This document shows, piece by piece, positions 1,373 through 9,770 of a stretch of DNA of 34,365 nucleotides; position 1 is the first letter of the stretch, and every line of letters starts with the position of its first letter. The notes below the pieces were generated by a model. It searched no databases, was not told the DNA's origin, and saw only the letters and a list, made by a program, of their open reading frames with translations. This stretch comes from Candidatus Helarchaeota archaeon (GTDB lineage Archaea > Asgardarchaeota > Lokiarchaeia > Helarchaeales > RDOG01): the NCBI GenBank assembly GCA_029838215.1, contig JALGVI010000032.1:1-34365 (forward strand), written 5' to 3'. Position numbers and translations under genes: made by a program.

Positions 1373-1927
1373 ATGATGGACGTCGATGAATTTGAACTTC
1401 TAAGACTATTAGGAAATAAAACACGTCGAGAAATACTTGAGCTAATTTCAGAATCCCCCCGATTCCTATCGGATATATCCAAGGATTTGGAAATAGGGCA
1501 ACAGGCAATTCTCCGTCACCTTAGAGAACTCATGAGTTTCGGAATACTGGAAGAGATGAATGAGGTATTTGATGAATCGGGACAGAAAAAGGGTCGAAGG
1601 CGCAAATATTATAAAATATCAGAAAAACATAGGCGTCGAATCGTCATAGACATATCTCCAGATTGTTTTGACATTCATGATTTACCTTTTCTATCAAACC
1701 AAGATACCGAAACTAAAAATGAATATTGCAAGAATGCTAACGACATAATTTCGGAATATGAGGAATTTAAGGAAAATATCATGGGAATAGATAAAGTAAA
1801 GCGTTATGAGAAGATACTCGAATTTGAAAATAGATTAATGAAAGAAATAGAATGTTTAAATCATGCTCGAAGATTAAATGAAGAAATTCTTCGGGACCTT
1901 CAGGTTTTAAAAAGTCACGTTCTTTAA
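1373..1927 (+). CDS. ArsR-family wHTH transcriptional regulator, HSR1/Phr-like heat-shock repressor candidate
   Basis: LLGNKTRREILELI...SDISKDLEIGQQAILRHLRELMSFGIL...GRRRKYY is an ArsR wHTH, followed by a C-terminal coiled region. It lies directly upstream of cdc48, as for archaeal heat-shock regulators. Confidence 0.8.
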   Translation: MMDVDEFELLRLLGNKTRREILELISESPRFLSDISKDLEIGQQAILRHLRELMSFGILEEMNEVFDESGQKKGRRRKYYKISEKHRRRIVIDISPDCFDIHDLPFLSNQDTETKNEYCKNANDIISEYEEFKENIMGIDKVKRYEKILEFENRLMKEIECLNHARRLNEEILRDLQVLKSHVL

Positions 1928-1956
1928 ATCTTATTCTTTTAATTAATAGAATCGAA

Positions 1957-4236
1957 GTGAATGAAATGGTTGATGAAATACAATTACGCGTGCAATCAAT
2001 AGATGAAAAAAGTGCCATGAGATCATGGGTACGGGTAGATCCAGAAGTCTTCCCGAAATTGAAAATCTCAACGGGAGATATTATTCAGATACGGGGCAAA
2101 AAGACGACAGGAGCCATTGTAATCCCTGCCAAAAAAGAAGATGTAAACATGAACATCATTCGAATGGATGGCCTGATCAGGCAAAATGCTCAAGCAGGTA
2201 TTGGAGATATCGTAACTGTCGCAAAAATTAAGGTTCCAAAGGCTGAAAAAATTGTTTTGGCACCTGCTGCCGAAAATATCAGAGTAAGAATTTCGGGTGA
2301 TAGCATAAAAGGACATCTCATCAATAGACCCGTTAATAAAGGTGATATCTTAAGCGTATTTCGCCAACAGAGGCAACGTTCACAATCAATGCAGTTTTCA
2401 CCTCAATTTTTCGAAGAGTTTTTAACGGGAATGCGGTCTAAAAACCCATCAATGGGAGAAATTCGATTCAAGGTCATCCAGACAGTTCCCAATCAAATCG
2501 TTCAAGTAACGGGAAATACCAAAATTGAGATAAATTCTGAAGCCGTAACCTTACCGTCGGGTGTTCCGATTGTAACATATGAAGATGTTGGAGGTCTTGA
2601 AGACGCCATTCAAAGAATCCGGGAAATGGTTGAGCTTCCATTAAAACATCCCGAACTATTTTCGGCTTTGGGGATAGATCCTCCAAAAGGAGTTCTTTTA
2701 CACGGTCCTCCAGGAACGGGAAAAACCCTACTGGCAAAAGCCGTTGCAAATGAATCAATCGCAAATTTCGAGGTCATCAATGGTCCTGAAATAATGTCCA
2801 AATTCTATGGACAATCTGAAGAAACTTTGCGTAAAAAGTTCGAAAAAGCCGAACAAAAAGCTCCCAGCATCTTATTTATTGATGAAATAGATTCAATCGC
2901 CCCAAAACGGGAGGAAGTAACGGGTGAAGTCGAGCGAAGAGTCGTTGCCCAACTTTTAGGACTGATGGATGGTCTAAAAGGTAGAGGAAATGTCATAGTA
3001 ATTGGAGCTACGAATCGACCAAATGCATTAGATCCCGCACTTCGAAGACCCGGACGATTTGATCGAGAAATTGAGCTTCCAATGCCCGATAAAAAAGGAC
3101 GTAGAGAAATCTTACAGATTCACACGCGTGGAATGCCACTACACGAAGATGTCAACCTTGAAGAAATCATTAACATCACGCACGGATTTGTTGGAGCAGA
3201 CATTGCTGCACTGGCTCGTGAAGCCGCAATGTGTTGCTTGCGAAAAATTTTACCGGAATTAAACTTGGATGAGAGGTTCATTCCACAAGAAATCCTTGAT
3301 AAACTTCGAGTTTGCAGGGAGGATTTTTTGGAAGCACGCAAGCTTGTTGAACCCAGCACCCTCCGCGAAGTAATCATCGAAATACCCAACGTAAAGTGGG
3401 ATGATATCGGAGGACTTCACGATGTCAAGGAAAAACTTCGTGAAACAATAGAATGGCCATTAAAAACGCCAGATATTTTTAAAGAAGTGGGTATTCGTCC
3501 ACCTAGAGGCATTCTCTTGTTCGGACCTCCCGGTTGCGGAAAAACCTTGTTGGCGAAAGGTGTTGCCACAGAAAGCCAAGCAAACTTCATCAGCATTAGA
3601 GGACCGGAAGTATTTTCCAAATGGGTTGGAGAAAGCGAAAAAGCCATCAGGGAAGTATTCAGAAAAGCGAGAACTGCGGCACCATCAATCATTTATTTTG
3701 ATGAACTCGATGCAGTGGCTCCGAGGCGCGGTGCTTATTCGGGCTCGCAAGTCTATGAATCTGTTTTAAATCAAATTCTTTCAGAATTCGATGGACTTGA
3801 AGACCTTAAGAATGTAGTCGTTGTTGCATCAACAAATCGTCCTGACTTGATAGATCCCGCACTATTACGCCCGGGAAGATTCGATCAGTTAATTCTGGTG
3901 CCTGCTCCTAACCGAGAAAATCGAAAGGAAATTTTTAAAGTCCATACAAAACACATGAAACTCATTGATGATGTTGATATTGATAAGATCGTGGGTGATC
4001 TTGATGGATTTAGTGGTGCAGATATCGAAAATCTCATACGAGAAGCAGGAATGGAAGCAATTCGAGATGCAAAATTAAGTAATAAACCAATAAAAGGCGT
4101 GAACTCGATGCATTTTGAACGAGCTGCAAGAGCAGTACACGCAACCCTTACCCCAGACATCATCAAAAAATATGAAAACATGTATAAGACACTAAAATCC
4201 AAACGCGCTGCCGTAAAAGAATCGCACTATGCCTAA
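1957..4236 (+). CDS. cdc48: Cdc48/VCP (VAT) AAA+ ATPase
   Basis: N domain ([12 protein letters not shown]), two AAA modules with Walker A GPPGTGKT and GPPGCGKT, Walker B FIDEID and YFDELD, and [12 protein letters not shown] / LLRPGRFD. Ends in HYA. True start may be the ATG at 1966. Confidence 0.97.
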
Positions 4237-4297
4237 AAATTTCCTTTTTTTTAGATAAGTAAATTTTAAAAGACAATTTTTCAACTCGTTTTTTATC

Positions 4298-8344: not shown

Positions 8345-8381
8345 AAAAAAAGTAATGGAAAATAATTATTCTACTAATTTT

Positions 8382-9062
8382 TTATTTACTTTCTATTAAT
8401 TTTTTATATACTTCTTTCTTTTTGGCATCCATGGTCAAAAGCTCTCTCGGCGCATTTTCATCATCAATTTCATTTAAAATGTTCATCAGCATTTCTTTTA
8501 ATTCGTCCAACGTGGCATCCTCATGATACGCTTCTTTCAATAGACTCATTGCCTTGTTTTCATCGTTTCCTACAGCTATTGCTTTAACTTTAAATTTGGC
8601 TCCACTAGGTTCAATCAAATGAATGGATGGACCAGAAGAATCGATTCCCGCAAAAATAAGGCTTACACCAAAAGGTCTACCGCCAAATTGAGTAACTTGT
8701 TGCATTTTATTGCTAATTTTCCAAGCCAAAACATCGAGATCGGGATCTTCATTATAATACAGCCGCTGTACTTGAGCCTCAATTCGTGCTTGATTTATCA
8801 AAACTCTCGAATCGGCTAACAGACCCGAAAATGCTGTAAAAATAAATTCTTCAATTTGAAAAATTTTCTCATTATTCTCGTATAATGGATTAAAACTATT
8901 ATACTGTGATAGAACTACCACACCTGCATTTGACCGTGCAGCCAAAACAAGAGACCCGCGCTTCACGGCTTCTCGTGCATACTCTATCTGATGAATTCTG
9001 CCGTCAGGACTGAACATGGTAGCAATCCTGTCATACCCTCCTAACCGTCCAACATCAAACAT
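8382..9062 (-). CDS. psmA: 20S proteasome alpha-type subunit, divergent paralog
   Basis: GYDRIATMFSPDGRIHQIEYAREAVKRG, SGLLADSRVL, GGRPFGVSLIFAG. 226 aa with a degenerate C-terminal third. Confidence 0.93.
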   Translation of the reverse strand: MFDVGRLGGYDRIATMFSPDGRIHQIEYAREAVKRGSLVLAARSNAGVVVLSQYNSFNPLYENNEKIFQIEEFIFTAFSGLLADSRVLINQARIEAQVQRLYYNEDPDLDVLAWKISNKMQQVTQFGGRPFGVSLIFAGIDSSGPSIHLIEPSGAKFKVKAIAVGNDENKAMSLLKEAYHEDATLDELKEMLMNILNEIDDENAPRELLTMDAKKKEVYKKLIESK

Positions 9063-9770
9063 CTAGTTAAGCCTCCTTATTAGATTGTTTACCTCAACTT
9101 CAGACACCTTTTGGTAACCTTCAGCAGTAATGAGAACCATGTCAATTCCATTACCAGTATGAGGATTTCTTTCGATTGCAGCCAACATTGCCTTCAACGC
9201 TAATTTTTGTGCATCTTCAAGAGTTAAATCGTCGTGAAAGCCACCTTCTAAAACGCCATAGGAGAGCTGGGAACCTGAACCTGAAGAAATATACCGATCA
9301 TCAGGAATGAGAGCTCCACTTGGATCCATTAAATACAAGCGTGGATTTTCAGAAGCCACGTCAAGACCACCAATCAATAATTGAGTGTATAATGGAGCAC
9401 CAGAGCGGTAATACCCGTGAAAGACTTTTCCAATAAATTGAGCTGCTGCTTCTATCCTCATTTCATGCCCGTGTTCATACAAATACAGTCGAAATTCAGC
9501 CCTCAATCGATCTATTATGTTTTGAGCGTCTGCAACCAATCCTGCAATCGCAACTCCAATGCGTTTATCAATCATGTGAATTTTTTCTCCTTGTTTTGAC
9601 GCGATGAATGAATTCCCGGCTGAAACACGCCTATCTGCCGCAATTATTATGCCTTTATTTGTTCGTATTCCTATTGTCGTCGTCAATTCATGACCACTTC
9701 CATTATTGTTTTTTGAATGATCTATAGAATTGATTGCTATTTGGTGACCAACTGATGAAAACCCAGTCAT
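9063..9770 (-). CDS. psmB: 20S proteasome beta-type subunit, non-canonical paralog
   Basis: TTTIG, AADRR, EKIH, AGLVADAQ and SGSGS are present. The residue before Thr1 is Leu, and the RDxxSG motif reads RNPHTG. The stop abuts the alpha start. Confidence 0.93.
   Translation of the reverse strand: MTGFSSVGHQIAINSIDHSKNNNGSGHELTTTIGIRTNKGIIIAADRRVSAGNSFIASKQGEKIHMIDKRIGVAIAGLVADAQNIIDRLRAEFRLYLYEHGHEMRIEAAAQFIGKVFHGYYRSGAPLYTQLLIGGLDVASENPRLYLMDPSGALIPDDRYISSGSGSQLSYGVLEGGFHDDLTLEDAQKLALKAMLAAIERNPHTGNGIDMVLITAEGYQKVSEVEVNNLIRRLN

Follow-up and report, generated by a model that had tools for sequence, protein, structure and literature searches.

Whether genes for a Cdc48-type unfoldase, a PAC2-family protein and a 20S proteasome alpha/beta pair that lie within 8.4 kb of one another belong to a single degradation machine is the question raised by a locus (positions 1373-9770) in a genome of a Helarchaeota-like order of Asgard archaea. 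From the sequence alone, a dedicated and possibly stress-induced Cdc48-20S module had been predicted here. The window analysed in our study is the entire 34.4-kb contig (C85), and the genome (G000) comprises 3.62 Mb in 170 contigs with a completeness of 94%. Gene calls were checked by open reading frame (ORF) listing and by Pfam and NCBIfam scans. All genes listed in the original prediction are present, among them a regulator, cdc48, DUF1015, PAC2, a hypothetical gene and the alpha and beta genes, and the + strand block (1373-8344) converges on the - strand beta-alpha pair (8382-9770). Nevertheless, the 8.4-kb stretch consists of two units, each conserved on its own within one Asgard order and referred to as block A (1373-8344, + strand) and block B (8382-9686, - strand), which lie tail to tail with a gap of 37 nt. 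Their genes are lineage-specific versions of families already known, and the claim of a dedicated Cdc48-20S island fails. We consider it reasonably probable that two independent conserved modules were brought tail to tail by a rearrangement in G000 alone. A literature search found no paper on Helarchaeota proteasome paralogues.

The comparison of gene neighbourhoods carries this conclusion. It covered seven genomes of the order (G000-G006), mostly fragmented, of which G001 is the closest sampled relative and a near-complete assembly of 10 contigs, whereas G002 is 93% complete. G001, G003 and G005 share with G000 the order regulator, Cdc48, PAC2-family protein (PAC2x), a 163-aa protein in some cases, and an eL13-like/HhH protein; G006 has part of it because its contig ends. 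Family f2 has the regulator and Cdc48 side by side in divergent orientation, and the genes for PAC2x and the eL13-like protein are located elsewhere. None of the five relatives in which both blocks could be placed (G001, G003, G004, G005 and G006) has block A next to block B, and the beta-alpha operon is found beside neither Cdc48 nor PAC2 there. In G001, block A is located at 1.24 Mb on contig C3 and block B at 29 kb on contig C1. Since the genes that come after the eL13-like gene in G001 and in family f3 map to other G000 contigs, the junction behind position 8344 is a rearrangement breakpoint specific to G000. By our own estimate, about 15 proteasome, PAC2, Cdc48 and PAN loci in 3.62 Mb would yield about 0.6 pairs within 10 kb by chance, and therefore the juxtaposition alone is not significant. 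The two blocks converge and thus share no transcript. Moreover, an inverted-repeat scan of three promoter regions revealed nothing in common, and no cis-element common to both blocks was found in G000 among inverted repeats and the patterns TTAGTCA[AT]T and TGTTAnTAACA. Accordingly, no link beyond proximity in one genome was found, and nothing indicates a dedicated partnership.

Block A starts with a gene for an ArsR-family winged-helix regulator of 184 aa (1373..1927, +; Pfam HTH_5 and HTH_20). Among solved structures it is most similar to 2P4W (E 8.3e-13), with residues 8-172 of 184 aligning to residues 7-170, and this structure is the heat-shock repressor Phr of P. furiosus (PMC13286277). 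The regulator has an ArsR-type winged helix and a C-terminal helical domain, is homologous to Phr over its full length and is the neighbour of Cdc48 in each of the other six genomes of the order. As the protein is a full-length Phr homologue, stress induction is plausible for the Cdc48-PAC2 part of the locus. About 100 nt upstream of the regulator gene we identified the palindrome TGTTAGTAACA (1272..1282, +), a candidate autoregulatory operator with counterparts in front of the orthologous regulator gene in G001 (TGTTAGTAACA) and G005 (TGTTACTAAC). The exact pattern TGTTAnTAACA occurs at three sites genome-wide, none of them close to beta4-alpha3, the gene pair of block B. TGTTAGTAACA may be the site to which the Phr-like protein binds.

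The Phr regulon of Pyrococcus comprises HSP20 and VAT1 (a Cdc48 homologue), to which a recent multi-omics study added PbaA with its partner PF0014 (PMC10746257). The similarity to the Pyrococcus/Thermococcus system concerns both the regulator, a full-length homologous ArsR-type protein with a long C-terminal helix, and the genes beside it, as the Pyrococcus targets and block A both combine a Cdc48/VAT unfoldase with a PAC2-family protein. However, the members are physically clustered with the regulator in block A and dispersed in Pyrococcus, and the PAC2 member of block A is PbaB-like and not PbaA-like. Moreover, the Pyrococcus operator is absent in block A, where the palindrome TGTTAnTAACA is conserved instead, and in f3 genomes the protein at the Hsp20 position has no Pfam match. 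For the latter reason, the label 'Hsp20-like' that had been considered for this f3 protein was dropped. A search for the Pyrococcus operator, the consensus of which is reported to be TTTnnTnnCnnnnnGnnAnnAAA (Keese et al. 2010), gave two matches in the window at one mismatch or less, none of them in the relevant promoters and with 5.2 expected by chance.

The second gene of block A (1957..4236, +) encodes a Cdc48/VAT-type double-ring AAA+ unfoldase of 759 aa with CDC48_N, CDC48_2 and two AAA domains. It scored 1018.8 bits against TIGR01243 (cut-off 802.65), which places it in the Cdc48/VAT class, and its aromatic pore loops read KFYG (D1) and KWVG (D2) in the translation. Orthologues share 64-70% identity within the order and 52-58% within the class, and they occur across the class, including genomes that lack alpha3/beta4. 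Its orthogroup spans the class and has a tyrosine motif at the C-terminus, so that the protein is not tied specifically to block B. The HbYX-dependent activation of the 20S by Cdc48 has been described together with the rule [LVIMGAPFYW][FY]x (PMC3493965). The class orthologues end in the canonical tails FYK, LYR, AYT or LFS, and those of the order end in QYG, AYG, QYA or HYA with the tyrosine kept in all of them. The G000 protein (C-terminus ...ESHYA) is among the four of six order tails read that fail the rule. Besides this gene the genome holds three further Cdc48-type genes. The copy on contig C165 is cut by the contig end and its C-terminus was left out of the tail comparison; among the three paralogues with a readable C-terminus only the Cdc48 of block A has the penultimate tyrosine, and the two other full-length ones have no penultimate aromatic residue. 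Compared to the archaeal Cdc48-20S systems of T. acidophilum (Cdc48/VAT) and M. mazei (CDC48-A/B), the N-D1-D2 order, the aromatic pore loops and the penultimate tyrosine are the same, but the Cdc48 of the order has His, Gln or Ala at the hydrophobic position of HbYX. We infer that Cdc48 can dock on 20S alpha rings via its C-terminal tyrosine. The predicted role as a 20S cap is supported as far as the penultimate tyrosine is kept, and weakened in that the tail His-Tyr-Ala departs from the published motif. In addition, the single PAN of the genome, which ends in LYT, means that Cdc48 is not the sole candidate cap.

PAC2x (263 aa; 5574..6365, +) is an order-specific PbaB-like member of the PAC2 family (PF09754, 110.8 bits), which remains below the cut-off of TIGR00162 (113.9 bits, cut-off 200). 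Among solved structures it is nearer to PbaB (3VR0, E 3e-21) than to PbaA (3WZ2, E 1.6e-13). PbaB forms a tetramer that activates the 20S in an HbYX-dependent manner, acts as a holdase and works independently of ATP (PMC3605417). In both proteins the PAC2 fold is followed by a long flexible C-terminal segment. However, PbaB binds the 20S by its terminal HbYX motif (PMC3605417), whereas PAC2x ends in Tyr-Ile-Ser/Gly without a penultimate aromatic residue in all seven genomes of the order; every orthologue has a basic linker followed by GYIS, RYIS or GYIG. The tail Tyr-Ile-Ser therefore does not conform to HbYX, and PAC2x is the only one of the five PAC2 paralogues of the genome with an altered C-terminal motif, since the other four end in FYG, YFG, MFG or MYV. 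We also considered the eukaryotic YPhi motif, in which Tyr is followed by Phe or Tyr (PMC8907193), and rejected it because the penultimate residue of PAC2x is Ile.

The remaining genes of block A are less uniformly conserved. The DUF1015 protein (404 aa; 4298..5512, +; PF06245, 257.7 bits) is located between Cdc48 and PAC2 solely in G000 and is missing at this position in G001, G003 and G005 as well as from the part of block A seen in G006, so that it is an insertion specific to G000. A family-less protein of 163 aa (6381..6872, +) has no credible Pfam or PDB match, and an orthologue in the same position was found only in G001 (37% identity). The last gene (447 aa; 7001..8344, +) had been annotated as eL13. 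This applies in part only: a weak L13e-like N-domain (Pfam 25.1 bits, cut-off 24.9; NCBIfam PRK12277 43.7, cut-off 96) is fused to about four HhH motifs, and these repeats make up the remainder of the protein. It is the sole L13e-like gene in the genome, comes after PAC2x in G001, G003, G005 and G006, and is single-copy in every genome of the order. In the f3 genomes, block A has two extra genes (L072:4128-4787 and 7191-7760, -; same positions in L073 and L071), and the proteins found there are a CxxC thioredoxin-fold protein (PF13192) between Cdc48 and PAC2x and a very acidic protein of 189-202 aa without a Pfam match between the regulator and Cdc48.

Block B consists of two proteasome genes, in which the stop codon of beta4 abuts the start codon of alpha3. 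The third, divergent 20S alpha of the genome, alpha3 (226 aa; 8382..9062, -), matched Proteasome_A_N (PF10584) with 46.6 bits and PF00227 with 134.2 bits. Its 209.2 bits against TIGR03633 are under the equivalog cut-off of 287.35, and the subfamily model NF003075 was barely passed (219.9 vs 219). The protein keeps the equivalents of the YDR gate (Tyr8-Asp9-Arg10), Pro17, Tyr26 and the activator-pocket Lys66, positions that we assigned by motif following the T. acidophilum numbering. GYDR, SPDGR, EYA and the Lys of NEKIFQI are kept in all four full-length orthologues. The last, C-terminal helix is lacking in alpha3.

The fourth beta subunit, beta4 (207 aa; 9063..9686, -; PF00227), reached 193.8 bits against TIGR03634, under the equivalog cut-off of 224. 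Its ORF is open up to an ATG at 9770, as had been noted, but the start is most likely the TTG at 9686-9684. This TTG is the codon before Thr1 and has GGAAGTGGT on its 5' side, every beta4 orthologue begins with Met-Thr-Thr-Thr, and in-frame stops lie just upstream in G001 and L095. The extension of 28 codons upstream of the TTG is thus probably untranslated, and the subunit would have no propeptide. Consistent with this, a propeptide with Gly(-1) for autolysis was not found, and beta4 would need no autoprocessing because removal of Met exposes Thr1. Thr1, Asp17 and Lys33 of the first triad as well as Ser129 are invariant in the clade. The second triad is altered, with Asn at position 166 and Thr at position 169 in place of Asp and Ser in every clade member. 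For yeast beta5, the D166N exchange was reported to reduce activity drastically with Thr1 still being reactive (PMC4792962). By analogy, Asp166Asn/Ser169Thr probably attenuates the active site of beta4. These traits were also considered as unique to beta4, which was rejected since about 12 of 154 betas have a propeptide of 0-1 residue, seven betas outside the clade have Asn166 and some beta1 subunits begin with MTTT.

Orthologues of alpha3 and beta4 are confined to the order, where they occur in six of seven genomes. Intact ORFs were found in four genomes (G000, G001, G004 and G005). A metagenome scan with the beta4 alignment added just two short contigs with intact ORFs (L095 and L096), and alpha3 fragments lie at contig ends in G003 and G006. 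In G002 neither subunit was detected. Among 1.84 billion clusters at 50% identity, the beta4 clade has one representative, and no further match exceeds 42% identity. Quick maximum-likelihood trees recovered the alpha3 clade and the beta4 clade as monophyletic with 99% and 83% support, respectively, and placed both on long branches outside the alpha1/alpha2 and beta1-3 groups of the order. The bases of these trees were unresolved, and the trees did not resolve the origin of beta4/alpha3 relative to the beta-alpha operons of other Asgard families (G105:C1:2702610-2703863, G112:C11:43525-44778 and G056:C1:1543393-1544638), where these operons are the main 20S genes and from which descent is possible. 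The operons of families f13 and f16 have the same order of beta followed by alpha, and their subunits likewise branch outside the main alpha1/alpha2 and beta1-3 groups. However, the operon beta is the sole beta of the genome there and has a long propeptide. The operon pair is the entire set of G056, and one more alpha is present in each of G105 and G112. The f16 operons have a very divergent alpha (116 bits against PF00227), and these genomes encode a second, canonical one elsewhere.

A candidate regulator of beta4-alpha3 is a 263-aa winged-helix protein (13422..14213, -) with weak similarity to the Pfam families HTH_45 and MarR; searches of this protein and of the 163-aa protein of block A against PDB sequences gave no usable match. 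In G001 the gene for its orthologue (47% identity) is the immediate upstream neighbour of beta4; in G004 the orthologue (36% identity) is encoded about 1.1 kb upstream of beta4, on the far side of one intervening gene. In the window it is 3.6 kb away from beta4, separated by three inserted + strand genes, i.e. two ferredoxin-like genes followed by a gene for a 762-aa protein (11120-13408, +) without a Pfam match. About 50 nt upstream of beta4 we found the element AAA(C/G)TTAGTCA(A/T)T(A/T)(A/T)A in G001 (four copies), G004 (two copies), G005 and L095, and a variant of it in L096. The same element is present upstream of the winged-helix gene in G000, G001 and G004, and in the window it reads ACTTAGTCATTAAAT (14261..14275, -). 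In relatives, the winged-helix protein may act at this promoter element (TTAGTCAAT). The core TTAGTCA[AT]T has 64 sites genome-wide compared to about 138 expected from base composition. As none of them lies at any other proteasome, PAC2, Cdc48 or PAN promoter, the pattern gives no sign of a regulon. The promoter of the Phr-like gene contains, just 5' of the TGTTAGTAACA palindrome, AAATTAGTCAAATAA (1252-1266, +), which differs from the TTAGTCAAT element by one mismatch; this likeness is probably due to chance because the G001 counterpart lacks it. Downstream of alpha3, G001 has a run of four consecutive paralogues (336-350 aa; L043:10626-15005), whose sole G000 homologue is on contig C143.

Taken as two independent modules, the locus can be interpreted as follows. 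Module A would be a Phr-type stress, probably heat-shock, proteostasis operon under the Phr-like repressor. This repressor would control the Cdc48 unfoldase, docking on 20S alpha rings via its C-terminal tyrosine, as well as PAC2x, which likely serves as a 20S cap and holdase that works without ATP and has a changed tail for docking (Tyr-Ile-Ser/Gly), and the eL13-like/HhH protein would come last in the operon. A predicted fold of PAC2x with two alpha3 chains, described below, lends weak support to such a cap. Module B would be a beta4-alpha3 operon peculiar to this lineage, from which an alternative 20S core would be made. In this core the alpha subunit would keep gate and activator pocket, and the beta subunit would expose Thr1 by Met removal and have a probably attenuated active site; in relatives, the operon's own winged-helix regulator would act at the TTAGTCAAT promoter element. 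The alpha3/beta4 particles may well be served by Cdc48 and PAC2x just like every other 20S in the cell.

Several observations weigh against this interpretation. The lack of adjacency in G003, G005 and G006 was judged from contigs of 4-40 kb in a set of seven mostly fragmented genomes. No intact TTAGTCAAT element lies upstream of beta4 in the window, i.e. it has been lost from the beta4 promoter of G000, and the Pyrococcus Phr operator consensus is missing upstream of block A. Moreover, docking on the 20S is less certain than for canonical members of both families since the HYA tail of Cdc48 and the YIS tail of PAC2x deviate from HbYX. Finally, the two modules are restricted to one and the same order, PAC2x and alpha3/beta4 have their origin on a single branch, and therefore a functional tie is conceivable.

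The genome contains seven PF00227 genes, three alphas and four betas, in addition to five PAC2 genes and one PAN. Therefore, the alpha/beta pair of block B is additional to and distinct from the housekeeping pair, as predicted, and the idea that this alpha could be the only psmA of the genome does not hold. The housekeeping genes are on contig C64, where alpha1 lies in the exosome superoperon (psmA, SBDS, Rrp4, Rrp41, Rrp42) and beta1 (psmB) adjoins the KH/beta-CASP gene aCPSF1/FttA. Neither context is present at the locus studied here, which is in line with the original prediction. Housekeeping beta1 starts with Met-Thr-Thr-Thr and lacks a propeptide in G001 (L181), G004 (L186) and G002 (L194), and has a propeptide of 14-16 residues in G000 and G005; hence, the propeptide was repeatedly gained or lost within the order. 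The third proteasome gene of the window is beta2 (33572-34189, -), which lies 20-27 kb from block A here and in G001 (G001:C3:1260340-1260891), a loose linkage kept within the family. On contig C165 (76633-77238), beta3 neighbours a gene for a NOG1-like GTPase in G000. It reads PG-ATTVG, with Ala at the Thr1 position, and each of the five members of the orthogroup that were read in the order has this replacement (L183, L187, L193, L196 and the G000 copy). It follows from the residue at this position that beta3 is a constitutively inactive beta subunit, which must co-assemble with active betas.

This set of paralogues raises the possibility that alpha3 and beta4 mix with alpha1/alpha2 and beta1-3 in heteromeric rings, as a step towards eukaryote-like mixed rings. 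In other archaea, extra paralogues such as alpha1/alpha2 of Haloferax, beta1/beta2 of Pyrococcus and the inactive and active betas of Sulfolobus give alternative cores, and mixed rings are known from these organisms. The number of PF00227 genes and the inactive beta3 argue in the same direction. However, alpha3 and beta4 differ from these paralogues in that they were duplicated together as an operon with its own regulator gene and promoter element, and in that beta4 has no propeptide and carries Asn166/Thr169, neither trait being unique alone. The two genes are translationally adjacent and inherited as a pair, which fits a self-contained particle better, and their long branches place them outside the groups with which they would have to mix. 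We therefore regard mixed rings as unlikely.

The dedicated machine of the original prediction would comprise Cdc48 as cap, PAC2x as assembly factor or activator for alpha3/beta4 and stress co-regulation of all of them, with G000 representing the fully clustered state. The blocks lie tail to tail only 37 nt apart, PAC2x and alpha3/beta4 are restricted to the same order, and alpha3 retains the Lys66 pocket. Likewise, the changed tail that PAC2x alone of the five PAC2 paralogues carries could mean a changed alpha-ring target. A predicted fold of two alpha3 chains with PAC2x points in this direction as well, with a score of 0.32 compared to 0.01 for the best control, at least 50% of contacts shared between runs and a partner pLDDT of at least 82. 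This is a weak pass: 58 of 80 solved complexes passed by the same mark, but so did 2 of 110 mismatched pairs, and at scores up to 0.60 only seven of the 80 solved complexes passed, together with both passing mismatches. Furthermore, the pass may reflect likeness only because PAC2-family/20S complexes have already been solved. Against a dedicated machine stand the absence of the clustering in five of five relatives, the occurrence of Cdc48 orthologues throughout the class in genomes without alpha3/beta4, the presence of PAC2x in G002, where alpha3/beta4 were not detected, and the convergent arrangement, without a shared transcript or any shared operator found. In addition, the Phr regulon of Pyrococcus includes VAT and PbaA, yet RNA of proteasome subunits was not raised by heat shock (log2 fold change of -0.4 for alpha and 0.2 for beta; PMC10746257; PMC10653856). 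Taken together, we consider a dedicated machine quite unlikely. A further-reaching version appears improbable to us: a self-contained second proteasome of Helarchaeales, with an attenuated, propeptide-less alpha3/beta4 core, a co-evolved PbaB-like cap and Tyr-Ile-Ser/Gly replacing HbYX as docking code, which would have been gathered with the tyrosine-tailed Cdc48 into a stress-controlled supercluster in G000.

It is highly improbable that beta4-alpha3 is a decaying, functionless duplicate with drifting features, as the scores under the equivalog cut-offs, Asp166Asn in beta4 and the missing C-terminal helix of alpha3 might suggest, because the ORFs are intact in four genomes and two metagenome contigs (contig-end fragments in two more genomes), Thr1, Asp17, Lys33, Ser129 and the gate and pocket residues are invariant, the Asn166/Thr169 pair is fixed and not variable across the clade, and the promoter element is conserved.

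With two independent modules as the preferred interpretation, the locus is of interest in two respects. An order with three alphas, four betas, of which one is inactive and one has an altered second triad, and five PAC2 proteins is a natural case of diversification of proteasome subunits and chaperones before eukaryotes. Moreover, independent support for the link between heat shock, VAT and Pba proteins that has recently been described in Pyrococcus comes from the physical proximity of the genes for a Phr homologue, Cdc48 and a PbaB-like protein.

Besides, two further regions of the window deserve mention. At 17219-24341 lies a hydrogenase maturation set consisting of a HycI-like protease, HypD, HypF and a HypE-like protein with AIR-synthase fold, interspersed with a TPR protein and a family-less protein of 211 aa. 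The gene at 26032-27480 (-) encodes a protein of 482 aa that weakly resembles the PCI, E3_UFM1_ligase, DDRGK and winged-helix domains of Pfam and is possibly a Ufl1/DDRGK1-like tandem winged-helix scaffold of the eukaryote-signature type.

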